Positions 231 to 17,948 of a stretch of 18,334 bases of DNA are shown here, in pieces. This DNA is from Candidatus Heimdallarchaeota archaeon. GTDB taxonomy: Archaea > Asgardarchaeota > Heimdallarchaeia > JABLTI01. The translations under genes were made by a program, and so were the position numbers. The stretch is taken from assembly GCA_030614005.1 (NCBI GenBank), contig JAUWKS010000063.1, forward strand, positions 1 through 18,334, in the 5' to 3' direction. Each line of letters begins with the position of its first letter. Positions within the stretch are counted from its first letter, which is position 1. The notes beneath the pieces were generated by a model. The model worked only from the letters and a program-made list of their open reading frames with translations, was not told where the DNA came from and did no database searches.

Positions 231-305
231 AAAAAATATATATCTGTTGAAAACGACATCACTACTATCAAAGATTAATCTTTCAAAACAATTGGTAAAC
301 AATTG
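231..305 (+). promoter_or_regulatory. Putative TATA box (AAAAAATATATAT, 231-243) with downstream 14-bp palindrome AAAGATTAATCTTT (270-283) and AACAATTG direct repeat (288-295, 298-305)
   Basis: Motifs read directly from the sequence; the palindrome lies about 25-30 nt after the TATA-like box, where an archaeal TSS is expected. Confidence 0.4.
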
Positions 306-1658
306 AGATTAAGATGCGAGAAATTACCTAGTGAAAAGACAAACTCTAATTTGGAGGAGAAAAAAGTGACGCCGAATGATGAGAATGAATTTAAAAAGTT
401 ACTAATTATTGGATCTTTAATTGGATTATTAGGCGCAATCGCGCTAATATTAGGAATGATTTTACAGTTTAATGTTTTCGTTTCAGGAGAAATCAATGTT
501 TTTGGTTTTGTCGTTATTGCATTTGCATTCGGCATCTTTATTATCTGTCTATTAACGCTTCTTGGAACATTTTCTGTAGGATTTAGTGTAAATGATGAAC
601 GACCAGGTTTGTTAGCATTAGTATTGTTCATATTTGCCCCAACAATTGTTTTAACAGAATTTAGTACTCCATTGTATTATTTACTAGAATTGGGAAATAA
701 AGAACTAGATCTTGGGGGCATAGGATTTGGTTTTTATTTGGTTTATATTGGTGCAGGACTATTCCTCCTTTCATTTATATTCCATGTTTGGACTTTCCTC
801 TGGAAAAATAGACTCAGCAATACTGGTTTAAATCTCGGTGGTAGCTCTGAAAACGAAGAAATTGGATTCGTTAAAATATTAAGAATTACTAACAGTATCT
901 TGATTATTGCCGCTAGCGCAGGGATAATATTGGGAATGATACTTCCAGCCTATGCTTCAGCAACAAATCCCGATATTGCAGGATTGTTAATGTACGAAGA
1001 TGGTTCACATTTGGATCTAGAAGCATTGTTCTTCATGGCTATTCTCTTTAGTATTGTAGTTACTGCAATTATTGTTATGCTTAGCAATTTTGGTGTGGTA
1101 AAATCTACGAGAAGCGAAATACCTTTGTTAATATTACTTGGAGTCACTTTTTTAGTTCCGGGTTATATTCCAAAAGCAAACCCTCTCGGTGTTTGGAGTT
1201 CACCTTTCTTTGAAGTATTAGTATTTATGCGTGAACTTACATATAATTCAGACTTTAGCTTTACTTTTGGAGGATGGATCCTAATAATAGGAGTAATTGG
1301 TTTGCTCATATCAGTTTTCATAGCAATTATTTCATTCTTCTTTAGCATGTCAGCAACAGCAGCTCCTAAAGGAGATAGACCAGCTAAGGTAAAGAAAAGA
1401 GGCAAAATGCCAACAGGTCCACCATCCGCCGATGTTGGAGGATTGGCTTCTCAATTAGCTAGTTCAGATCCACCTTCAGCAGCAGGTCCACCATCCGCAT
1501 TAGGTCAACCACCATCACCACCAAGCTTTTTAGCTTCTTCAAGTGCTGCACCAGGTGCAGAACCAGACAAACCAACATGTCCATTCTGTGGAAAATCGCT
1601 AAGATTTATTGATGAATACCAGAGATGGTATTGTGATTCATGTTCTCAATATGTATAA
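303..1658 (+). CDS. Multi-pass membrane protein (about 8 TM, 2 x 4-TM repeat) with Pro/Ser/Ala-rich linker and C-terminal CxxC...CxxC zinc ribbon
   Basis: 451-aa ORF with hydrophobic helices; ILGMIL occurs twice; PPS-rich segment; ends CPFCGKSLRFIDEYQRWYCDSCSQYV. True start may be TTG at 351. Confidence 0.85.
   Translation: MRLRCEKLPSEKTNSNLEEKKVTPNDENEFKKLLIIGSLIGLLGAIALILGMILQFNVFVSGEINVFGFVVIAFAFGIFIICLLTLLGTFSVGFSVNDERPGLLALVLFIFAPTIVLTEFSTPLYYLLELGNKELDLGGIGFGFYLVYIGAGLFLLSFIFHVWTFLWKNRLSNTGLNLGGSSENEEIGFVKILRITNSILIIAASAGIILGMILPAYASATNPDIAGLLMYEDGSHLDLEALFFMAILFSIVVTAIIVMLSNFGVVKSTRSEIPLLILLGVTFLVPGYIPKANPLGVWSSPFFEVLVFMRELTYNSDFSFTFGGWILIIGVIGLLISVFIAIISFFFSMSATAAPKGDRPAKVKKRGKMPTGPPSADVGGLASQLASSDPPSAAGPPSALGQPPSPPSFLASSSAAPGAEPDKPTCPFCGKSLRFIDEYQRWYCDSCSQYV
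1414..1498 (+). repeat. 16-bp direct repeat CAGGTCCACCATCCGC (1414-1429, 1483-1498) encoding GPPSA
   Basis: Two exact copies within the Pro-rich coding region. Confidence 0.8.
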
Positions 1659-1796: not shown

Positions 1797-2531
1797 TTAT
1801 TTTTTACTTTCTGTTTCTTCTTCCTCTACTAAAATAACTCCACCAGTTTTTCCTATACGGTATTCTTTTCCTCTAAACATATCTATGAATGGACCAATGT
1901 ATTTTGGAAAGATTGCTATAGAAATTCCAATGGTAAATAATCCAAGTAAAAAGCCTCCGCTCAAACCAGCTAGATGTATCCAAGGTGGATAGATTGGAAG
2001 AAAGAAAGCAACGGGGATGCCAACGAACAGTGCCATAAATTGTGCTGGTCTAACTGTTCGCGTTATTAATCCGAAAATCATCATACTGACAATAAACACT
2101 AATAATAATATTGGATTTGTTATAACCAAAAAACTGACAATGACAGCTATACCACGACCTCCTTTAAATCCAAGCCATGGACAATAATTGTGCCCTAAGA
2201 TTACAGCTATAGCAACTGAAATATAAATAATCTTATGCCAAGAAAATTCATAATATTCACCTGCACCAACAAGTGGATCATTATTAAAGGGAATAATCAT
2301 TGCTGCTAAGATACAAACCAATCCCTTTGAATAGTCTAGAAAACCTGCAAGTAATCCCCATCCAAAGCCAACCTGCATCATGGCATTTAGTCCGCCAACG
2401 TTTTTCATTCCACTTTCCCGTAAATCTATACCACTTCTCCATTTAGTAATCAGATAAGAGAATGGAATTGAACCAATCAAATATGCTATTATTGGACAAA
2501 TAATTACCCATATCCAATCAATAAAAGTCAT
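1797..2531 (-). CDS. plsY: PlsY-family (glycerol-3-phosphate acyltransferase-like) membrane protein with non-canonical active-site residues
   Basis: YLIGSIPF, G-x-x-N-x-G-x-x-N, DYSKG, GHNYCPWLGFKGGRGIA and the C-terminal GKE match the PlsY pattern; motif 1 Ser/Arg and motif 3 His/Asn appear substituted. Confidence 0.85.
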   Translation of the reverse strand: MTFIDWIWVIICPIIAYLIGSIPFSYLITKWRSGIDLRESGMKNVGGLNAMMQVGFGWGLLAGFLDYSKGLVCILAAMIIPFNNDPLVGAGEYYEFSWHKIIYISVAIAVILGHNYCPWLGFKGGRGIAVIVSFLVITNPILLLVFIVSMMIFGLITRTVRPAQFMALFVGIPVAFFLPIYPPWIHLAGLSGGFLLGLFTIGISIAIFPKYIGPFIDMFRGKEYRIGKTGGVILVEEEETESKK

Positions 2532-2707
2532 TATTTTTCAAAACCTGTTTCTACTATTGAATGCTATTTATTTTAACTTCTAAATTTTTAAGTTTTTCTA
2601 ATTTCTTCGAAGATGAGTAACAAACAAAATTAAAATTGATTACTTTGAAAGCTAACTAATTTATTACATTAAATTTTATTTTAGGAAGCAAACTCTTTTC
2701 ATTGAAT

Positions 2708-2720
2708 AAAAAAAAAGAAA
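2708..2720 (-). terminator. T-tract terminator candidate after the ABC permease gene
   Basis: A9 run (T9 on the minus strand) about 35 nt past the stop at 2750. Confidence 0.35.
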
Positions 2721-2749
2721 GGATTATTTCTTATGATATAATACTTGTC

Positions 2750-5560
2750 TTAAATTTGTTTTATTGCTTTTATAGTATCTTTTCTGAATACAATCCATGA
2801 TGTTAAAGCAGCAGATGCAATAGCTGTAACAAACAAGATGCTTGTTGCAAGCAAAAGTTGGAGTGGTTTGAAAACCAATTCATTTGGCGGTATGGTTGTT
2901 GCATATGTCAATATTTCAGTAAACATGTATGCTGCAAAAGTACCCAATGCTGCACCAGTTATTGCTCCAAAAACAACTAACGTCATTGATTCGGTTAGGA
3001 ACATACCAAAAAGCTGTTTCGGCGACATTCCTAGAACTTTCAAAGTAACAACTTCTCTTTCCTTTTCAATGGCTTGTATTAGAATCATCAAAGTAATAGC
3101 TGAAATGGTTATTACCAGAGAAGATATGAATGATGAATTAAGTGACCCATATAGCATTGTATTTCTTAAACTACCTTCAAAAGTACTTTCAAGATCCACA
3201 ACATTCTTGACTGAACGACCAAGTTCTTCTTCAATAGAAATTGCAACTTCTTTGATTTCATAATTTGGATCTACTTTCACTAGCAAATCACCTACAGAGC
3301 TAAATTCACTCTCAGTGAATATTGCAACATTCTCATACGTACCAATTATAACAAATCGATAAACAGTCTGATCGTCTCTAGGTTCACTAGTGTAGAATCT
3401 TGGCAAAAAGTCAAAAATACCCTTAATATTTAGGGTCCTGTTAAGTATTCCTACAGGATATTTCTCATAGACAATGTTAAATGTGTCTTCTCCATAAATA
3501 CCAATCTTCTGTAATTGTTTCTTTTGCATGACAACATCATCGTCATCAACTATTTTACTGAAGAATTTTTCTGGATTATTTCCTTGGATATATCCCATGT
3601 CAAAATAAGCTGTTTTAGCAAATCCCTCTGGATCTATACCAATAACTTGGTAAGAAAAGACCACGCCACCATAACTGAGTACCTGTGTGGTAATTCGAAG
3701 ATAGGTAGCTGATTGCACTCCTTCTATAGCAGAGATTTGCTCTTTGGTAATATTATTTCCAACATTTACTTTGTGAATTAAAATATCAGAACCAAGTGAA
3801 TAATAAGCATTTTCTCGATCATAGTCTTGATAGGATTCAATAGTCACTATCGATGAAAAGATGAGGGTGAATGTCAGTGTTATTAGTACGAGTGATCTTG
3901 CAGTATCTGCTTTTCTTCTTGAACTTCGTTTAAAGGCGAGACCTACTATTTCTAAATTCTTCGTCTTCCACGAGAGATGTGAAAGAAAATCGATAATATA
4001 TGGATAAATCCTTGATACTAATAGGACTCCTCCTAAAATCAGACAGACAATAGCTGATGTTCCTATTCCATAAGCAAAGGAGTAAGCAGAAGGTCCATCT
4101 AAATTTAAGACAACAACTATCCAGAGAGCAGTGCCAACGAATATTAAGAAGAGATCCAGAAATGCCTTCTGCCAAAATGGTTTCTTTTCTTGATGCTCCG
4201 AGTATGCTTCTTGTGTAGATATTGTGCTCATTTCCCAGATATTTAATACATTGATAATTAATGCTAGAACAAAGCCTACAGTTATCACTACAAAGAAAAT
4301 AATCAGATTTAGTGCTGGATTAATTGCCAACCCTGAAAAGGCTAAGAAACCGGTGCTTTTTGTAAGTAGCCAAGAAAAGAGATAACCCAAAACAAATGCA
4401 ATTAGGATTGCTGAAATAGTCATCTCTATTACTTGAAGGATTAAATTCGCCATTACTTCTTTCCTTGAACTGCCTCTTTGAAGCATAGTAGAAACATGAC
4501 GCTTCTGTCGTCGTTTCATTAAATTAGCTGAATAATTAGTGAGTGATAATGCCATTCCGATTATCGGTGTGAGGAATAAAATACCAAATAACTGGAAGAC
4601 TAGAAACTCTTTTCTAAAATCCTCAAGCATTATTGAAAGATCGTTGTAGACGTGTAAAGTGTATCCTTCAGTTTCAAATTCTCTTGTTATTTCTTGCGCC
4701 AACTGAGTTACTAGAGCAATTTCATTTTGCAAATCAAAGGAATCTATTTTCTCAAGATCAAAAGTAATCCTTCCTGTTGGTAAGGACATACCAGATAAAT
4801 ACCCAAGATTTGTAACAAAATTCGCAAAGTTAGTATAACTTGTTATCATAAATTGTTCGCTGAAATATTCACTCATGGCATCGAAATCAACAGCCGTTGC
4901 TCCTCGAACATTATTAAAAGATTCAGTTGTGATGAGTCCTGAAACATTGAGATAAGCTCCTCCATATGGCATACCCGTAGCAATTACTTGCTCAGATGAC
5001 ATCATAAACATTGGAGTGTAGCAAGGGATTGTATTCATTAATGAGATATTTGTAGTTTCAATTGTTCCACTATCTACAACTGCAATAACATCATCGATTT
5101 GTTGTGGAATGGTTCCATTGTAAAGAATTGCTTCTAGTGCACTAAAGTAGTCAGGTGGTACAGCATAAAGATTAAAATCATTGATATACGTTGAATCATT
5201 CTTATCTGTAAAATCAACAACTGCAAACAATCCTCTTGAAAGAAACCAGTCAACTCGATCAATTCGATCTTCTATTTCAACAGTTTTGATAGCTGCTTCT
5301 GATATTTCAATAAGCTTTGGTATCCCTGCACCAATTTCACTTGTAATATCATATGATGATACTGCTATTGTAAACTGTTTTGGAGGTATTTCTTGATAAA
5401 AACCGGTAAAACCTCCATATTGATAACTGTACATAAACATCAAGCTTGATGCTATTAAAGCAAGACTAATTCCCAATCCCAGAAACATCACAAGAGTGTT
5501 CCTTCTATTGAGGAATATCATGTTGTAATGAAATTTTATTTTTTCAATAATTTTTACCAT
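2750..5560 (-). CDS. FtsX/MacB-like ABC transporter permease with two permease modules
   Basis: 936 aa; two repeats of TM, large extracytoplasmic domain, 3 TM; motifs RRQKRHVSTMLQRGSSRKEV and EREVVTLKVLGMSPKQLFGMFLTES are typical FtsX-domain signatures. Confidence 0.9.
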   Translation of the reverse strand: MVKIIEKIKFHYNMIFLNRRNTLVMFLGLGISLALIASSLMFMYSYQYGGFTGFYQEIPPKQFTIAVSSYDITSEIGAGIPKLIEISEAAIKTVEIEDRIDRVDWFLSRGLFAVVDFTDKNDSTYINDFNLYAVPPDYFSALEAILYNGTIPQQIDDVIAVVDSGTIETTNISLMNTIPCYTPMFMMSSEQVIATGMPYGGAYLNVSGLITTESFNNVRGATAVDFDAMSEYFSEQFMITSYTNFANFVTNLGYLSGMSLPTGRITFDLEKIDSFDLQNEIALVTQLAQEITREFETEGYTLHVYNDLSIMLEDFRKEFLVFQLFGILFLTPIIGMALSLTNYSANLMKRRQKRHVSTMLQRGSSRKEVMANLILQVIEMTISAILIAFVLGYLFSWLLTKSTGFLAFSGLAINPALNLIIFFVVITVGFVLALIINVLNIWEMSTISTQEAYSEHQEKKPFWQKAFLDLFLIFVGTALWIVVVLNLDGPSAYSFAYGIGTSAIVCLILGGVLLVSRIYPYIIDFLSHLSWKTKNLEIVGLAFKRSSRRKADTARSLVLITLTFTLIFSSIVTIESYQDYDRENAYYSLGSDILIHKVNVGNNITKEQISAIEGVQSATYLRITTQVLSYGGVVFSYQVIGIDPEGFAKTAYFDMGYIQGNNPEKFFSKIVDDDDVVMQKKQLQKIGIYGEDTFNIVYEKYPVGILNRTLNIKGIFDFLPRFYTSEPRDDQTVYRFVIIGTYENVAIFTESEFSSVGDLLVKVDPNYEIKEVAISIEEELGRSVKNVVDLESTFEGSLRNTMLYGSLNSSFISSLVITISAITLMILIQAIEKEREVVTLKVLGMSPKQLFGMFLTESMTLVVFGAITGAALGTFAAYMFTEILTYATTIPPNELVFKPLQLLLATSILFVTAIASAALTSWIVFRKDTIKAIKQI

Positions 5561-5692: not shown

Positions 5693-6355
5693 CCAGATGC
5701 AATGTTCAATCCAGTATTAACGGCAATGGCATTTACAGTTTCCGCTGATTGGCGACAAAGAGGAACTTCTTTTTGGAAAGATAGCCTAGGAGATAGTGTA
5801 GCTATTGAATCGCTCAATATTGTAGATAAACCACATGATCTTTCAGCTGGATCAGGTATTCGTTCTTTTGACTCTGAAGGAAATCCGACAAAAGATATTG
5901 AAATAATTAAAGATGGTGTGCTACAAACTTTTCTACATAATCAACGCACGGCTAATAAAGAAAAGCTTGAACCAACTGGAAATACTTTTAGATCAATGGG
6001 CGGGCAACCAAGCTTTACTCAACCACCAGCAAATATTTTCCCAAATTCTCTTTGGGTGTTACCTGGTGAAATTCCTGAGGATGAATTGATAAAAGATACA
6101 AAGCAAGGAATAATTATACATAATTTTCAAGGAACAGTTCGTAACCAAAATGGTATTTTCTCTGGAATTGCAAAAGGAGCCTATCTAATAGAAAATGGGG
6201 AAATAACTAAACCGGTAACAGGTATTTCAATTTCAGGAAATGTCTTTGAACTACTAAAAAATATTCAAGGAATTGGCAAAGAACTACATTTAACAAACGC
6301 CTATGCGTTAACACCTATGATGAAATTTACCGGTATAAAAGTCTCTACTAAATAA
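5693..6355 (+). pseudogene. PmbA/TldE-like protein, C-terminal domain only (5'-truncated or stand-alone)
   Basis: SFDSEG, IIKDGVLQTFLH, TGN, GDFS-like GIFSG and ISISGNVFELLKNI match the PmbA/TldD C-domain; no HExxGH; only 217 aa against about 440; in-frame TAA TAG TGA at 5684-5692 precedes PDAM. Confidence 0.75.
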
Positions 6356-7824: not shown

Positions 7825-8103
7825 CTAATATCTCAACAAATACTTGTTCTTCTCCCAACTCGTAACTTGTAATCGATATTCATCCCATTCCCTTGATTTT
7901 GCAAGAATATAGGATTCGTTGTGAGGATTCTCAAAAGTATTTTTGATCAAATTTGAGGAGCGAATATTATTTGTTGCCTCCCACAAACTTGATGGCAGAT
8001 GTTCTACATGTAAATCATTTAGTTTTTGTTCATCCATTCTGTAAAGATTTTCTTGTCTAGGTGGCGGGATAGTTAGATTTTGTTTGATGCCTTCATAGAA
8101 CAA
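7825..8103 (-). pseudogene. glnA: Glutamine synthetase type I C-terminal remnant
   Basis: EGIK..PPP..ENLY.M...LPSSL.EA...AKSREWDEYRLQVTSWEKNKY matches the GS-I C-terminus; only about 90 aa; the upstream frame is unrelated and closes with TAA at 8146-8148; catalytic core absent. Confidence 0.8.
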
Positions 8104-10666: not shown

Positions 10667-11704
10667 TCAAATAATTATAACTATAATTATTCCACCAATA
10701 GTTAGCAAAGTGCCTATAATTATTTTCCAGTCAACTCTTTCTTTCAAAAAGAGAATTGAAAGAGGAGTAGCTATCAAAGGTCCGGAAGCAGCGATTGCTG
10801 CAGTAGTGGATGCCTCTATATTTTTAATTGCTAATAGATAAATGATATTTGCCACGACTAAACCTAGAAGAGCAGAGATTGCTACAAAAGAGATATTTTT
10901 CCAAGTAAATTTGCTTTTATTCTTTCCTCTATTAGTGCTTAAGAAAATTACTAATGAGATAGGCACTAAGAAAGCCATTCGTGCACCATTCAATGTTACA
11001 ATGTTGACATCAGTTTGTTGTAATCCATATTTTATCAAAGCTGTTCCAGTAGCCCAAGTTACAGATGAAATAATTGACAGAACAATGCCCAAAACTAATT
11101 TGCTCTTAAATAGAGGGGGGTTTTGGTTTCTAGTATCAATTTCTGGGTTACTAATTTTAGTTTCTATTTCAACAATTTTAGTGTCTATTGTGCCTTCGCT
11201 TATAGCGTTCTCATTTTTGGAAGCATCCAATATTGGTTCTTTGCTTTTTGAATTATCACCATTAACTTTAGAGAGAGAGATAAAAACTATTCCAATAATT
11301 ACTACTGCTATTCCCAGTAATTTTAGCCACTCAAAACTTACTTCGGGAAAAAAGATTACTTCAAAGATATATGTTAACAAAGGATAAGTCATAGCTATCG
11401 GGTAAGCTTTTGAAACACCTATTAATTGGAGACTTGCGAAATAAAGGAGATTGCCAATGATAATTCCCATTATTGCTGCAGAAATAAGAGGCAATAATGC
11501 TTTCCAACCAATTGTGAACATCAACATGAAATCACCTATTGCAGATACAATAATTAAAAAGGATATACTTGAAACGATTGTTTGAATAAGTAACAAACCA
11601 GAAGGTTTCAAATCCTTGCCTTGTGCTTTAATTATTACAGTAACAATGCCTGAAAGAAGCATATTTCCTATTGCTGCAATAACACCTATGGTTTGGGGAT
11701 CCAA
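10667..11704 (-). CDS. EamA/DMT family transporter (two 5-TM EamA domains)
   Basis: 10 TM helices; LIGVSKAYPIAMTYPLLT and IEASTTAAIAASGPLIATPLSILFLKERV are EamA signatures; about 55-aa polar linker. Confidence 0.9.
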   Translation of the reverse strand: MDPQTIGVIAAIGNMLLSGIVTVIIKAQGKDLKPSGLLLIQTIVSSISFLIIVSAIGDFMLMFTIGWKALLPLISAAIMGIIIGNLLYFASLQLIGVSKAYPIAMTYPLLTYIFEVIFFPEVSFEWLKLLGIAVVIIGIVFISLSKVNGDNSKSKEPILDASKNENAISEGTIDTKIVEIETKISNPEIDTRNQNPPLFKSKLVLGIVLSIISSVTWATGTALIKYGLQQTDVNIVTLNGARMAFLVPISLVIFLSTNRGKNKSKFTWKNISFVAISALLGLVVANIIYLLAIKNIEASTTAAIAASGPLIATPLSILFLKERVDWKIIIGTLLTIGGIIIVIII

Positions 11705-12550: not shown

Positions 12551-14251
12551 TTATTTTACTACTGCTTCTACGTGAGTTTCTTCTCGTAGTGGTCTACGCA
12601 ATACTTTTCCAACAGGGGAAAGTGGTAGTTCTTCTCGGTATTCAAAATATTTAGGAACTTTGTAAGGAGCGAGGTTTTTCTTGCAATAAGCTCTTAGTTC
12701 TTCTACAGTGTATTTTGGTGCACCTTCGCGTGGAACGATAACTGCCTTAATTACCTCATTGACATATTCATCTTTTATTGGTATTACTGCAGCCATAGAG
12801 ATATCTGGGTGATTACAGAGGCAAGTTTCTACTTCTAAAGGCCAGACTTGGAATCCAGAAGTAAAGATACAATCTTTCAGTCTATCAACAATCTTAAAGA
12901 AACCATCTGGTGACATTTTTACCACATCACCTGTTTTCAACCAACCATCTTTGGTTATTACTTTATCAGTTTCATCTTGTCGATTCCAATATCCTTTCAT
13001 CACTTGAGGGCCTTTAACTAGCAGTTCTCCTTCATTTGTGAGATTATCTTCGTTGTATGAGTCTAATGGAATATCTTTACCGGTATTTATGTCAATAATT
13101 TTTACTTCAACACTTGGAACAGGTATTCCGATACCTTCTTGTCTGAGATTAATATCTGCAGGATTTACGTGAGTTACAGGAGAAGCCTCAGAAAGACCAT
13201 ACCCTTCAATTAGTACTGCACCTGTTTTTTCTTCAAATTTTCTGGTGACTTCAGGGTGTAGTGCACTTCCACCGGAAATACTCATTCTCAAAGATGAATA
13301 ATCATATTCACCACTTTTTGGATGTTCAGCCATTTTTTGGAACAATGTTGGAACACCAGTAAAGAATTGTATTTTGTATTTCTGGATAACTTGCATAATT
13401 TCTTCCAGTTTTCTTGGGTCCGGAATAAGGACAATCATTCCTGCAGATGCCATAGGCCAGAGGAATGAAGTTGTTAAACCAAAAATGTGAGATAATGGCA
13501 AAGCACCAATATTTGTAGATTGAACACCTGGATAATGTCCACCAATCCATTCAACCCAATAATCAATAACAAATGCTTGGGATACTAAATTTCTCTGGGT
13601 GAGCATTGCTCCTTTTGGTATACCAGTTGTTCCACCGGTGTATTGTAGGCAAGCTAAATCCTTTGCAGGGTCTAATTTTGGACGAATATCCTTATTCTCA
13701 CCGCTTTTCATCACTTGAGTATATTTTAACTCAGACTTTGAAATTTTAGTATTCTTTCGAGCAATGACATTCTTGTAGAGGAACCCTTTAACAGCGCTAA
13801 GTTCATCTCCAATAGATGAAATAATAACATGTTCAAGAGCAGTATCCGAGCGTACATCTCGAATTTTGTCTAAGAATAAGTCCAATGAAACAATTACTTT
13901 TGAGCCACTATCTTGTAATTGAAACGTTAGTTCTTTTTTAGTATAGAGAGGACTAATTGCTGTTACAATTCCACCCAAGTAAACAATACTTAGATAGCTA
14001 ATAACAAACTGAGGGCAGTTTGGCATTAAAAGAGCAACTCTGTCGCCTTTTTTAACACCTAATTTTGCAAGTCCATTAGCAAATTTTTGAACTTCAACTC
14101 CAGCTTCAGCGTAGGTTTTTTTGTTACCTAAGAAGTAGAGAAAAGGATTATTGTCTGCTTTTTCAACCGATTCATAAAAAAGCTCAATTAAGCTTAAATT
14201 TGGAACATCAAATTCAGCGGGTATTTTTGAGTGATATTTCCAATACGCCAT
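12551..14251 (-). CDS. fadD: Long-chain-fatty-acid--CoA ligase-like (ANL adenylate-forming enzyme)
   Basis: YTGGTTGIPKG, GYGLSEASP, GELLVKGPQVMKGYW, WLKTGD, DRLKD and PLSPVGKVLR core motifs; GGAG SD upstream. Chain-length specificity cannot be read from sequence. Confidence 0.88.
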   Translation of the reverse strand: MAYWKYHSKIPAEFDVPNLSLIELFYESVEKADNNPFLYFLGNKKTYAEAGVEVQKFANGLAKLGVKKGDRVALLMPNCPQFVISYLSIVYLGGIVTAISPLYTKKELTFQLQDSGSKVIVSLDLFLDKIRDVRSDTALEHVIISSIGDELSAVKGFLYKNVIARKNTKISKSELKYTQVMKSGENKDIRPKLDPAKDLACLQYTGGTTGIPKGAMLTQRNLVSQAFVIDYWVEWIGGHYPGVQSTNIGALPLSHIFGLTTSFLWPMASAGMIVLIPDPRKLEEIMQVIQKYKIQFFTGVPTLFQKMAEHPKSGEYDYSSLRMSISGGSALHPEVTRKFEEKTGAVLIEGYGLSEASPVTHVNPADINLRQEGIGIPVPSVEVKIIDINTGKDIPLDSYNEDNLTNEGELLVKGPQVMKGYWNRQDETDKVITKDGWLKTGDVVKMSPDGFFKIVDRLKDCIFTSGFQVWPLEVETCLCNHPDISMAAVIPIKDEYVNEVIKAVIVPREGAPKYTVEELRAYCKKNLAPYKVPKYFEYREELPLSPVGKVLRRPLREETHVEAVVK

Positions 14252-14385: not shown

Positions 14386-15462
14386 TTATTTTTCTAAAGT
14401 CTCTAGAATTTTTAATATTCTTGAGCTAGTGTCTTTATAACCATACAAGTCTTCATTGAACGATATTTCTTTTGATAACATAATCGCCAATTTTTCTTTA
14501 ATTTCACCAGGATTTGCTAAAATATTTCCACCAGCTTCGATTGTTTCCAACCATTCAGTTTGTTCTCTAACAGTTACACATGGTTTCTTATGCCAATATG
14601 CTTCCTTTTGAACACCACCTGAATCAGTTATGATCGCTTGAGATTCTTTCAATAATTTACTGAACTCAAAGAAACCAACTGGTTCAATAATAATTACTTT
14701 TTCTTCTGCTTTTTCAAGAATGTTCAATGCTTTCAGCATATTCTTTGTTCTTGGATGTAGAGGTAAAACCACTGGTAAATGTAATTGTCCTAATTCATCC
14801 ATTATTTTAGGTAATTTTTCATCAATAGTATTTTCTGCGCGGTGTATTGTAGACAAAATATATTCATCTGGAATATCTTCGCGACGAGGCAATGCATTTA
14901 CTTTGTCCTCAATCATAAATGCAATTTCATACATTGTATCACCAGTTTTATGCACATTATTTGTAATACCTTCATTTTTTAAGTTCCTTACAGCAACTTG
15001 TGTTGGACAAAAAAGTAAATCAGAACAATGATCAGTAAGAATACGATTTATTTCCTCTGGCATCATTTTATTGAAACTTCTAAGACCTGCTTCAAGATGA
15101 GCAACCTTCACATGTAACTTAGATGCTGCGAGAGCACCACTTATCGTTGAATTTGTATCTCCAGGTACTATTACAACATCTGGTTCATTTTCAATTATTA
15201 CTTGCTCAATTTCTTTTAACATCTCACCTGTTTGATACCCATGTAATCCCGAACCTACACCTAAATTATAATCAGCAGGTTCTACACCCATTTCTTTGAA
15301 GAATACATCAGACATATTGATATCATAATGTTGCCCTGTGTGTACTAAAATGTGGTCATGTTTTGTTTTTCTGATTGTTTCAGTAAGAGGAAACATTTTA
15401 ACGAAATTGGGTCGAGCTCCTACAACAGACAAAATTTTCAGATAAATTACTCTCCATTTCAA
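14386..15462 (-). CDS. wecB: UDP-N-acetylglucosamine 2-epimerase (non-hydrolysing)
   Basis: GARPNF, HTGQHYD, GDTNST, HLEAGLRSF, PEEINR, TIHRAEN, HPRT and TDSGGVQKEA all present. Start is TTG 15462 or CTG 15441. Confidence 0.93.
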   Translation of the reverse strand: MKWRVIYLKILSVVGARPNFVKMFPLTETIRKTKHDHILVHTGQHYDINMSDVFFKEMGVEPADYNLGVGSGLHGYQTGEMLKEIEQVIIENEPDVVIVPGDTNSTISGALAASKLHVKVAHLEAGLRSFNKMMPEEINRILTDHCSDLLFCPTQVAVRNLKNEGITNNVHKTGDTMYEIAFMIEDKVNALPRREDIPDEYILSTIHRAENTIDEKLPKIMDELGQLHLPVVLPLHPRTKNMLKALNILEKAEEKVIIIEPVGFFEFSKLLKESQAIITDSGGVQKEAYWHKKPCVTVREQTEWLETIEAGGNILANPGEIKEKLAIMLSKEISFNEDLYGYKDTSSRILKILETLEK

Positions 15463-15647
15463 TAATTAACAAAGTTCTTTGGAATTGTAAATAGTTAAAT
15501 ATACTTCATTTAATAAATTTACTTAAATATAAACTAGGTTCCGAGAGAAAATTCAAAAAATTTTCACTTTTTTCCAAGAAAATAGAATAATGATTTTAAA
15601 CAAGAGAATAGTAACTTTTATTTTAGTTAATCATAAATAAAACCAAT

Positions 15648-16514
15648 GTGTCCATAATGGCTAATCAGAAAAAAATACTTGTAGTGATACCTGCTCGAAA
15701 TGAAGAGAAATTTATAGGAAAAACAATCAAAGCACTTGGTAATCAAAATCCACTACCAACAAAAGTAGTTATTATAAATGATGGATCAACAGATAAAACT
15801 GAGGACATCGCAAGAGAAACTTCTAAGATAGCAAAGTTAAACCACAAAATAATAAATAGAAAAGATAGAGGGTTCGCTGCTTTAGGTCAAGCAACGCTTG
15901 CAAGAATATACAATGAATCATTCAGTTCTGTTGACTTGTCAAAATATGATTTCTTGGTTATTAATGGTGCTGATGCATTATTAGCAAATGATTATTTTGA
16001 GAAATTATTAACAAAATTTAATGAAAATCCGGATCTAGTTATTGCTAGTGGTTATTGTCCTGGAGAAAAGATTAACAAAGGACATGCTCATGGCATTGGA
16101 AGATTCTATCGGATGGATTTTTTTATAAAAACTTGCAAAGGTAGATTTGAAATCAGCAATGCATGGGAATCTATTCCTATATTTTTAGCAAATGTTAATG
16201 GTAAAAATGTTAAAAGTTTCCAAGAACCAATATTATATCACTTACGACCAAGATTTACCAGAGCAGTAGATCGAATATATATTTTACGTGGAGCAGCAAT
16301 GAAAGAAGTAGGTTATTGGACACCATATGCTATTGGTCGATGCATACGCGTGAGCCTCAGACACAAAAGAATTAAAGTTGGAATATTGATGCTTGTTGGT
16401 TTTTACAGAGCAAGAACAAATAAGCGTTTAGAGAAATTTGCAGAGGAATATCGAAAGTTTCAAATAAATTTTGTAACAAAAACCTTATTGATAAAATTAA
16501 GAATACTAAAATGA
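15648..16514 (+). CDS. Glycosyltransferase family 2 (GT-A)
   Basis: VVIPARNEE and INDGSTDKT; the DxD position reads GAD; basic C-terminal helices. Confidence 0.85.
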   Translation: MSIMANQKKILVVIPARNEEKFIGKTIKALGNQNPLPTKVVIINDGSTDKTEDIARETSKIAKLNHKIINRKDRGFAALGQATLARIYNESFSSVDLSKYDFLVINGADALLANDYFEKLLTKFNENPDLVIASGYCPGEKINKGHAHGIGRFYRMDFFIKTCKGRFEISNAWESIPIFLANVNGKNVKSFQEPILYHLRPRFTRAVDRIYILRGAAMKEVGYWTPYAIGRCIRVSLRHKRIKVGILMLVGFYRARTNKRLEKFAEEYRKFQINFVTKTLLIKLRILK

Positions 16515-16598
16515 AAAAGAGAAAGCTCTATTAAATTTTTTTTATTTCTCGAACAGAAGAATTTTAAATCCACTCAAACTCAGTATGTATATTATCAA

Positions 16599-17948
16599 AT
16601 GGTGCGAGATAACTTGACTAGTATTGATCTTCAATCTCTAATAAGTATTTTACATTTTGGTGGAGCTTTAATTGGCCAACCAACTGTAATTCCTGCAGAA
16701 GTACCTAAAACAGAACCAATATTTACTTTTCCTTTTAGTGATGAGAAAATTGATTTCCACCCAGAAAAGTCATATAAAACTCTCTATGATGTAACTAAGA
16801 ATTTACTTCTTAAGTATAAAGACAAGAAAATTGGTTTACCTTTAAGTGGAGGAATAGATTCAACGACTATTCTGTATTTGGTTCAAGATATAAACAAAAA
16901 GGAAAATCTAAACATTACTGTTAAAGCATATAACCAAGTATTTGACTTTAGAGATGAGTCAAGATTTGCTCAACAAATCGCAGATCAAACAGAAACCGAA
17001 TTAGAAATCATTCATCAAACAGCCAGTCAAAATTTAAAGGAATTTAATGAAATATTGAAAGTTTTTCCAGAACCCATTATGGGAAATGCACATATGAATA
17101 CTATTTACAAGAAAATGAAAAAGGATGGAAATATTTCTGCAATAAGTGCATTGGGTGGGGATGAATGTTGGGGAGGATATCCTAGTCATAGAATTTTTCA
17201 TGACAACCTCTTTTCAAAATACATCTATCAAGCTCAAGGAATTAGAACAAAATTACTTAGGATATTGTTTACACCAATAAGTAAACAACAATTGTGGATA
17301 AGGTATAACTTAAGATTTAATCCTAAAAAACAATTTTTAAATCCAAGAAAATATCGGAAAGCAACGAAAAAGATAGGCAATAATTTGATTAGCAATATTA
17401 AGAATTCACAGTTTGTTTGGTTTTATTACAATTATCTTGATGTTAATTCAAAATTACCTAATAATGGTAGATTTAACTTATGGGATGCAAATGAGCATTT
17501 TACATTTACAAAATGTGAAAAACTATACAAACATCAGATAAATGGTGTAGGAGTTCTTAATGGTCTAGAAATATTATTCCCATTTTTAGAACCTGGATAC
17601 GTTAAATATTCACTTGCGATAGATAAGTCAAACAAAATCAAAGATGGTATTTCGAAATGGGGCATGAGACAAATGATGAAAAATAAGCTTCCTAAAGAAA
17701 ATCTGATGAGGGGAGCATATGGCGATAAATTCGGTTGGGGTGAAACGTATCTAACACTTTGGGAGAAAGGATACAAGGATTTTGTAGAAGAAAAACTAAC
17801 TAAACAAAATGTAACCGATTTCGGAGTGCTTAATTGGAATTGGATATCGAAAACTCTTGGAAAACTCACAAAACGACACCGAGGAGCTGAAGCAAGAGTG
17901 CTAATATCTATGGCTTTCTTCCAACGAATTTTAGAATTACACAAATAA
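16599..17948 (+). CDS. Asparagine-synthetase-like ATP-dependent amide ligase lacking the glutamine amidotransferase domain
   Basis: PP-loop LSGGIDS, GGDECWGGY, FPFLE and K..MR..M...LP......K.G; only about 55 aa precede the synthetase domain and there is no N-terminal Cys. Confidence 0.82.
   Translation: MVRDNLTSIDLQSLISILHFGGALIGQPTVIPAEVPKTEPIFTFPFSDEKIDFHPEKSYKTLYDVTKNLLLKYKDKKIGLPLSGGIDSTTILYLVQDINKKENLNITVKAYNQVFDFRDESRFAQQIADQTETELEIIHQTASQNLKEFNEILKVFPEPIMGNAHMNTIYKKMKKDGNISAISALGGDECWGGYPSHRIFHDNLFSKYIYQAQGIRTKLLRILFTPISKQQLWIRYNLRFNPKKQFLNPRKYRKATKKIGNNLISNIKNSQFVWFYYNYLDVNSKLPNNGRFNLWDANEHFTFTKCEKLYKHQINGVGVLNGLEILFPFLEPGYVKYSLAIDKSNKIKDGISKWGMRQMMKNKLPKENLMRGAYGDKFGWGETYLTLWEKGYKDFVEEKLTKQNVTDFGVLNWNWISKTLGKLTKRHRGAEARVLISMAFFQRILELHK

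Follow-up and report, generated by a model that had tools for sequence, protein, structure and literature searches.

A lineage-restricted PlsY-family variant with replaced pocket residues in a Candidatus Heimdallarchaeota archaeon

The closest described system to the gene treated here is PlsY of Aquifex aeolicus (PDB 5XJ5-5XJ9), an acyl-phosphate-dependent glycerol-3-phosphate (G3P) acyltransferase of the membrane. In this enzyme the head group of the acyl-phosphate is seated in a "phosphate hole" formed by His92 and the backbone amides of residues 104-107, the hydroxyl of Thr41 and the amides of the backbone at residues 40 and 41 hold the acyl carbonyl, and Asn37, which contacts neither substrate, has been assigned a role in oxyanion stabilisation (PMC5700162). 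The phosphate of G3P is clamped by Ser35, Arg45, Lys104 and Asn180 while its 2-OH is bound by Ser142 and His177, and among single mutants 4.8% of the activity is left in S35A and in T41A, 1.1% in R45A, 4.6% in N180A, 25% in K104R and 0.03%, the lowest value listed, in H177Y (PMC5700162). PlsY matches in Asgard archaea have been cited as a sign of bacterial-type ester lipids in the relatives of the eukaryotic host (PMC6431249, PMC6737245, PMC13400652), and in the papers found on the lipid divide such matches are counted as presence or absence (PMC6431249, PMC6737245, PMC13400652, PMC8813620). The present work concerns a PlsY-like gene on an 18,334 nt contig of Candidatus Heimdallarchaeota archaeon (GenBank JAUWKS010000063.1; the whole stretch is referred to as the window), for which an earlier note, made from the sequence alone, had proposed that the canonical catalytic residues are replaced. 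Our literature search, with incomplete coverage, turned up no study of the pocket residues in archaeal homologues of PlsY.

Fold and active site of the PlsY-like protein

The gene encodes a full-length protein of the PlsY family, as the earlier note had read it, with a match to Pfam PF02660 (G3P_acyltransf) of 110.8 bits against a cut-off of 24.1 (E 9.4e-32). In a phmmer search the sole solved relative was Aquifex PlsY (5xj5, E 1.3e-12; 27-29% identity), with which it shares the multi-helix membrane fold. An AlphaFold2 model based on 146 homologues reached a pLDDT (predicted local distance difference test) of 94.5 and a pTM (predicted TM-score) of 0.90, and when this model was run through Foldseek against the PDB just the five PlsY chains (5xj5-5xj8) were found at E < 0.001, with a TM-score by target of 0.79-0.81 (0.80 in the comparison with Aquifex PlsY), further matches being noise. 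Membership in the family and the PlsY membrane fold are not in doubt. The equivalog model for the enzyme itself, TIGR00023, gave 86.4 bits, below its cut-off of 137.2, and the weak matches to PRK14417 and the other PlsY-related "membrane protein" models of NCBIfam stayed far below the curated cut-offs (76 versus 249 bits). In public annotation (NCBI) the protein cluster to which it belongs is called glycerol-3-phosphate acyltransferase.

To map the active site, three independent alignments were made: with phmmer to PDB 5xj5, with MAFFT together with bacterial PlsYs, and with a hidden Markov model (HMM) built from 147 PlsYs of canonical signature only (the canonical-only HMM). The features obtained in the window are:

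1797..2531, minus strand: PlsY-like open reading frame (ORF), ATG start, 244 amino acids (aa), 244 codons without internal stop
2376..2411, minus strand: motif 1, residues 41-52, GMKNVGGLNAMM (phmmer, MAFFT, canonical-only HMM)
2190..2192, minus strand: His114, equivalent to His92 of Aquifex PlsY, the side chain of the acyl-phosphate "phosphate hole" (alignments and column statistics)
2151..2168, minus strand: motif 2, residues 122-127, FKGGRG (alignments and column statistics)
2037..2051, minus strand: segment RPAQF in transmembrane segment 5 (TM5), residues 161-165 (column statistics and canonical-only HMM)
1863..1904, minus strand: motif 3, residues 210-223, KYIGPFIDMFRGKE (canonical-only HMM and MAFFT)

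The canonical-only HMM aligned the protein end to end (153.7 bits) and laid kHrsNikrLlagtE over KYIGPFIDMFRGKE with a posterior of about 9 across motif 3. All three alignments gave one and the same residue mapping, equal to the hand alignment in the earlier note, and the substitutions listed there (S->M and R->M in motif 1, K->R in motif 2, H->Y, N->P and R->D in motif 3) therefore stand. In motif 1 (Aquifex residue first) Ser35 is replaced by Met42, Gly36 by Lys43, Thr41 by Leu48 and Arg45 by Met52, and Asn44 (Asn37, oxyanion) and Asn49 (Asn42) are retained. In motif 2 Lys104 is Arg126, with the glycine loop of the phosphate hole (G124-G125-R126-G127) kept, and in motif 3 His177 is Tyr211, Asn180 is Pro214 and Arg183 is Asp217, with Gly221 and the structural Glu223 (Glu189) retained, the latter as previously claimed. 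Two changes had not been on the earlier list, both in TM5: Ser142, the canonical binder of the G3P 2-OH, is Gln165, and Ser139 is Arg161.

Compared with Aquifex PlsY, the window protein thus has equivalents of His92, the GGxG phosphate hole, Asn37, Asn42 and the C-terminal Gly and Glu, but it lacks the entire G3P phosphate clamp (Met42, Met52, Arg126 and Pro214 stand in place of Ser35, Arg45, Lys104 and Asn180), both 2-OH binders (Gln165 and Tyr211 for Ser142 and His177) and the Thr41 hydroxyl to the acyl carbonyl (Leu48). It also differs in the Asp at the position of Arg183, in the new conserved residues Lys43 and Arg161 and in two loop insertions at approximately residues 80-97 and 182-191. 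It is accordingly a member of the PlsY fold that fails the defining features of the PlsY enzyme, namely the equivalog score, the phosphate clamp and the 2-OH binders. Because the equivalents of all the mutated positions of the Aquifex G3P pocket are changed at once, canonical acylation of G3P by this protein is very unlikely on the established mutagenesis data, while chemistry at its phosphate hole seems plausible.

Conservation of the substitutions and relation to canonical PlsY

When 5.8 billion proteins were searched for homologues, 39 clusters with an identity of 49-99% were obtained (E ≤ 1e-65), followed by a gap in the match list down to E 1e-24, and the named members were all Heimdallarchaeota or Asgard metagenome-assembled genomes. 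An exhaustive HMMER scan of 1.84 billion representatives gave just two with E < 1e-30. In two trees of PlsY homologues these sequences form a monophyletic group, here called clade A (40 rows; SH-aLRT, the Shimodaira-Hasegawa-like approximate likelihood ratio test, 98 and 99), which is subdivided into an Asn-type subgroup, including the window gene, and a Thr-type subgroup. The window protein is a full-length PlsY-fold membrane protein of the Asn-type subgroup, and clade A as a whole, which lies outside every curated NCBIfam or TIGR family, is best called a new lineage-restricted variant within the PlsY family.

When eleven pocket positions were compared, 147 of 253 homologues carried the canonical signature S[GKRH]NTNRHKSHN, mostly as SGNTNRHKSHN, and in clade A it reads [NTM]KNLN[IMLV]HR[QT]Y[SP]. 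New residues are conserved in the clade A columns: K43 in 88%, L48 in 98%, R126 in 100%, R161 in 98% and Y211 in 90%. Asn44, Asn49, Asp66, His114, Gly124 and Gly125 are 100% common to clade A and canonical PlsY, so that both the acyl-phosphate hole (His92 and the GGxG loop) and the oxyanion Asn37 have invariant equivalents in the clade. A C-terminal tail, PKYxxxFIDMFxGKEY, is specific to clade A.

The earlier note had set apart the case that the replacements are private to this genome and reflect decay. For the set as a whole this does not hold, as the same replacements recur across sequences only 49-75% identical; the exception is Met in place of Ser35, which occurs in this species alone, the remainder of clade A having Asn or Thr and the closest relatives Asn. 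The ratio of non-synonymous to synonymous substitution rates (dN/dS) among clade A orthologues was 0.06-0.2 in pairwise Nei-Gojobori comparisons, a rough figure as synonymous sites are saturated (proportion of synonymous differences, pS, about 0.7), pointing to purifying selection, and compared with a 99%-identical gene the window gene has six differences (two synonymous and four non-synonymous), too few for dN/dS. The reading frame is intact in the window gene and in every orthologue seen, and near-identical copies of the gene recur in assemblies from several studies. Taken together the clade A substitutions are conserved and selectively maintained rather than private decay.

Among 200 sampled genomes of the phylum, clade A orthologues (E < 1e-60) are confined to the genus of the window. 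Its Heimdallarchaeia order, represented by 12 genomes of a single family and the only one in which clade A was found, has them in 10 of these, frequently as two copies in tandem. The sister group in the trees (SH-aLRT 92-93), here called group B, contains two further genes of the same genome (C71 and C75) with the relatives P0041, P0042 and P0123. Like clade A, C71 and C75 carry Arg in place of Ser139, with a hydrophobic residue substituted for Thr41 and either Arg or Gln for Lys104, but they are only 30-38% identical and keep single canonical residues (Arg45 in C71, His177 in C75) that are all lost in clade A. An origin of clade A as a recent duplicate of the canonical PlsY of the lineage was considered and rejected: although backbone support is weak and the root of the tree unknown, clade A groups with group B and other non-canonical forms, and the canonical Heimdall PlsYs group with the canonical bacterial ones, apart from both. 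As clade A is placed away from them, the window gene is not a recent copy of the canonical gene.

A canonical PlsY does exist in this part of the tree. In a PF02660 scan of the 200 Asgard genomes the best 30 matches (146-182 bits, as against 111 bits for the window protein) came from five Heimdallarchaeia families, with two members of the window's own genus among their genomes, and all of these 30 keep S35, N37, N42, R45, H92, K104, H177 and N180. They are of the same family and lineage as the window protein and of similar length (for example L066:4189-4917), but keep GSGNxGxSNxxR, FKGGKG and RHxxNIxRL (signature S G N A/S/T N R H K. H N), which the window protein does not. Many Heimdall PlsYs of canonical signature have Ala at the Thr41 position. 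Within the order such a gene is found in 8 of the 11 other genomes (8/12 overall), and the window gene is therefore an extra paralog and not the only PlsY of the lineage.

In the two loci examined, in G195 and G205 of the window's genus, the canonical gene is the last of three genes on the same strand:

L066:2216-4917 (G195) and L067:3024-5748 (G205), same-strand genes: fakA-degV-plsY cluster with a FakA-like kinase (313 aa, Dak2 and FakA middle domain), DegV/FakB (282 aa) and canonical PlsY (242 aa; L066:4189-4917)

The motifs of this PlsY are GSGNTGFSNAYR, FKGGKG and RHRENIKRL, and with its three genes the cluster makes up, in an archaeon of the Heimdall group, a complete module from the fatty-acid kinase to PlsY; no paper on FakA in Asgard archaea was found in our literature search, the coverage of which was incomplete. 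G205 is the nearest relative, with a clade A orthologue 94% identical to that of the window. Nine of the 12 genomes of the order have a FakA-like (Dak2) gene, this genome not being among them (9 of the other 11), and in the five further genomes with both genes the Dak2 match and the canonical PlsY share a contig at a distance of ~1.3-1.4 kb. The whole region including its flanks is missing from the assembly studied here (G000; 3.6 Mb, 126 contigs, 90.4% complete), where an assembly gap and a real loss are indistinguishable.

Six PF02660 genes are present in this genome, none of them canonical. The paralogs C123, C8 and C103 have the signature SGSRNRHK.. with Asp or Glu at the Asn180 position, the two group B copies have a partly stripped canonical pocket and the window gene a fully stripped one. 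There are 19 full-length DegV/FakB paralogs (for example C125:1850-2680, C32:2728-4523, C50:8107-10933 and C103:20025-20873), and one DegV gene directly adjoins the C103 PlsY paralog. The absence of plsX from the window, which the earlier note had observed, extends to the whole assembly and to every genome of the order (0/12), and PlsC was likewise found in none of the 12. GpsA was not found in this genome; the lone weak match to NAD_Gly3P_dh_N was examined as a candidate and rejected, being an ApbA/PanE reductase. Geranylgeranylglyceryl phosphate (GGGP) synthase (PF01884), with which the formation of archaeal ether lipids begins, was detected in 0/12 genomes of the order, and two Asgard GGGP synthase queries gave no match in this genome, though divergent forms could be missed by both searches. 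The genome does have a CDP-archaeol synthase gene (C72:4183-4731), with an IS605 OrfB/TnpB-like gene of Cas12f-like TNB domain some 3 kb upstream (L070:152-1363, on C72).

Across 80 genomes of the class, GGGP synthase is found in 19 of the 22 genomes of one family, which in the phylum sample has weak PF02660 matches only (the three copies read are non-canonical), and it is rare or marginal in the families with canonical PlsY. The apparent anticorrelation of the two enzymes is a lead and not a result. Among the genomes sampled the canonical form was found only in Heimdallarchaeia families, and of the PlsY-like genes sampled in other Asgard classes, tandem forms of ~400 aa included, none has a canonical clamp. 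In one Asgard family, f13 (L054 = G173:C6:59900-62900, L055, L056, L063 and L064), the PlsY-like domain makes up the N-terminal half of such ~400-aa proteins, which often stand in tandem arrays of up to four and carry the signature T K N S/A/T/L N H/R H K/Q ... In another Heimdall family G026 and G130 (L071-L074) contain a canonical PlsY plus two paralogs with the signature S[KG]NRNRH[RK][AS]YQN, in which Ser35, Arg45 and Asn180 are kept while Thr41 is Arg and His177 is Gln, a rewiring that differs in kind from that of clade A.

Judging from these pocket residues, "plsY" counts in arguments on the lipid divide mix the canonical enzyme with several rewired groups of paralogs, and sorting by pocket signature alters which lineages get credit for the committed step. 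The lipid-divide argument of the earlier note, which pointed to the use of plsY hits from Asgard genomes as evidence for ester lipids of the bacterial type, is only partly right: it applies to the window gene and the five paralogs, which should not be taken for G3P acyltransferases, but not to the lineage, given the canonical PlsY in 8 of 11 sister genomes. The window gene should not be taken as evidence for bacterial-type lipid synthesis; its close relatives do have a normal PlsY.

Possible functions of the window protein

Since the published mutagenesis indicates that a G3P pocket with these residues is unworkable, it is reasonable to suppose a changed acceptor or role, and of the earlier note's proposal of a repurposed enzyme it is this part that stays a supposition, the conserved clade and the unworkable canonical pocket being supported. 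We lean, with some reserve, towards a neofunctionalised transferase that would still depend on acyl-phosphate and whose acceptor would not be G3P in its canonical pose. The part of the active site for the acyl-phosphate head group and for stabilising the tetrahedral intermediate is retained (equivalents of His92 and Asn37, GGxG loop of the backbone) and the acceptor site is rebuilt, each side chain that positions G3P having been swapped for another conserved residue. Positive charge is now placed at Lys43, Arg126 and Arg161, the Arg45 and Thr41 sites are hydrophobic, and the His and Asn of motif 3 are Tyr and Pro or Ser in the rebuilt site. The acyl group would then pass from acyl-phosphate, supplied in the lineage by a FakA-like kinase acting on fatty acids bound to DegV/FakB, to an acceptor other than free G3P in its canonical pose, reasonably a more hydrophobic one and possibly a lipid-linked alcohol. 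If so, clade A would offer a natural experiment on acceptor change in the PlsY fold. Catalysis, an acyl-phosphate donor and the type of acceptor are inferred, and several points weigh against this reading. In place of Thr41, which contacts the acyl carbonyl through its hydroxyl, stands a Leu, and since T41A costs the Aquifex enzyme 95% of its activity (PMC5700162) the donor could be a different one as well. Neither FakA/Dak2 nor a canonical PlsY was found in this 90.4%-complete assembly, and a source of acyl-phosphate in this organism is presumed from its relatives and from that degree of completeness. That Arg161 and Lys43 face the pocket is suggested by helix periodicity, and the locus is eroding around the gene, the second tandem copy and the nitroreductase being gone and TldD a remnant.

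The same Leu at the Thr41 position provides the main argument for a different explanation, that acyl transfer has been lost and that the protein is a lipid- or phosphate-binding membrane protein, an acyl-phosphate hydrolase or a transferase with a non-acyl lipid phosphate as donor, as it takes away the one side chain by which the acyl carbonyl is recognised. The acceptor pocket is moreover unrecognisable and in the relatives the gene sits with a duplicated FtsX-like permease and not with lipid-synthesis genes. Thr41 is dispensable, however, in so far as many Heimdall PlsYs of canonical signature have Ala there, and the full conservation of Asn37, His92 and the glycine loop in clade A is hard to explain without chemistry at this site; we regard a loss of acyl transfer as rather unlikely, if well worth keeping in mind. 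The intact donor side would also suit a glycerol-phosphate acyltransferase that still acts on G3P, or on archaeal glycerol-1-phosphate (G1P), with the phosphate held by the relocated Lys43, Arg126 and Arg161. With Arg45 and Arg183 lost and Lys43 and Arg161 gained the net positive charge near the pocket is approximately preserved, bacterial PlsY has been reported to take both G3P and G1P (PMC13400652), and glycerol-3-phosphate acyltransferase is the NCBI name of the cluster members. This is nevertheless improbable, as all six side chains contacting G3P are changed together, where H177Y alone leaves 0.03% in Aquifex PlsY, the protein is far under the PlsY equivalog cut-off, GpsA was not found in this genome, and the sister genomes keep a separate canonical PlsY, so that the paralog is not needed for that job. 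A decaying copy under relaxed constraint, on its way to a pseudogene, is largely refuted and has very little probability left. In its favour are the loss from the locus of the tandem partner, PmbA, the nitroreductase and half of TldD, the restriction of Met42 to this species and the four non-synonymous against two synonymous differences from the 99%-identical gene, but six differences are too few for a ratio, the frame is intact in all orthologues seen, the same replacements are found at 49-75% identity, dN/dS is 0.06-0.2 and near-identical copies appear in assemblies from several studies.

A broader and distinctly doubtful idea is that the order may run a fatty-acid based lipid pathway in which rewired PlsY paralogs, of which there are 6-11 per genome, supply the missing acylation steps. 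It is suggested because FakA-like genes are found in 9/12 and canonical PlsY in 8/12 of the genomes, with 19 DegV genes in this one, and GGGP synthase and PlsC in 0/12. A candidate role of the paralogs would then be the acyl-phosphate-dependent acylation of lysophosphatidic acid or other lipid alcohols, and the window gene would represent a novel type of acyltransferase in a pathway for ester lipids of Asgard archaea.

Genomic neighbourhood

In the relatives DUF3795, TldD and PmbA are located on one strand, and a divergent block contains, in order, an FtsX-like permease (~942 aa), a nitroreductase (185 aa), the Asn-type copy and the Thr-type copy of clade A, and ends with a convergent gene of ~440 aa that belongs to no known family. 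The window retains the gene order but is without the nitroreductase, the Thr-type copy and PmbA, and of TldD only the C-terminal 217 aa are left (5702-6355, plus strand), corresponding to residues 236-453 of the 453-aa orthologue. The independent assembly L022, from a 99%-identical strain, likewise lacks the nitroreductase and the Thr-type copy, and as both gaps are shared the loss of these two genes is not an assembly artefact. Among the listed public sequencing runs those containing the stretch were DNA runs only, from cold-seep and marine-sediment metagenomes, and none was an RNA run. The features next to the PlsY-like gene are:

2532..2749, minus strand: AT-rich spacer of 218 bp between the FtsX-like gene and the PlsY-like start, where the nitroreductase sits in relatives
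2750..5560, minus strand: duplicated FtsX-like permease, 936 aa (Pfam FtsX; weak ADOP and LolCE matches)
303..1658, plus strand: protein of 451 aa outside all known families, convergent to clade A genes and conserved downstream of them

The FtsX-like permease is a conserved same-strand upstream neighbour of clade A genes in L015, L019, L020 and L021, and the copy in the window is 57% identical to that of L019. The 451-aa neighbour gave no Pfam or NCBIfam match; its orthologues in L015, L019, L021 and L022 are 431-463 aa long, with 63% identity to the L019 copy. In the ESM Atlas its language-model neighbours were zinc-ribbon membrane proteins with weak scores, giving nothing usable. Because the syntenic genomes all belong to one family, the neighbourhood of FtsX, nitroreductase and TldD was set aside as functional evidence.

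Elsewhere in the window an AMP-binding, acyl-CoA-synthetase-like enzyme (12551-14251, minus strand), an EamA transporter (10667-11704, minus strand) and a glycan block (14386-17948) with a UDP-GlcNAc 2-epimerase, a GT2 glycosyltransferase and an asparagine-synthase-like protein were identified. An ORF of 92 aa at 7825-8103 (minus strand) matches nothing but the C-terminal 83 positions of the catalytic domain of glutamine synthetase and resembles a gene remnant.

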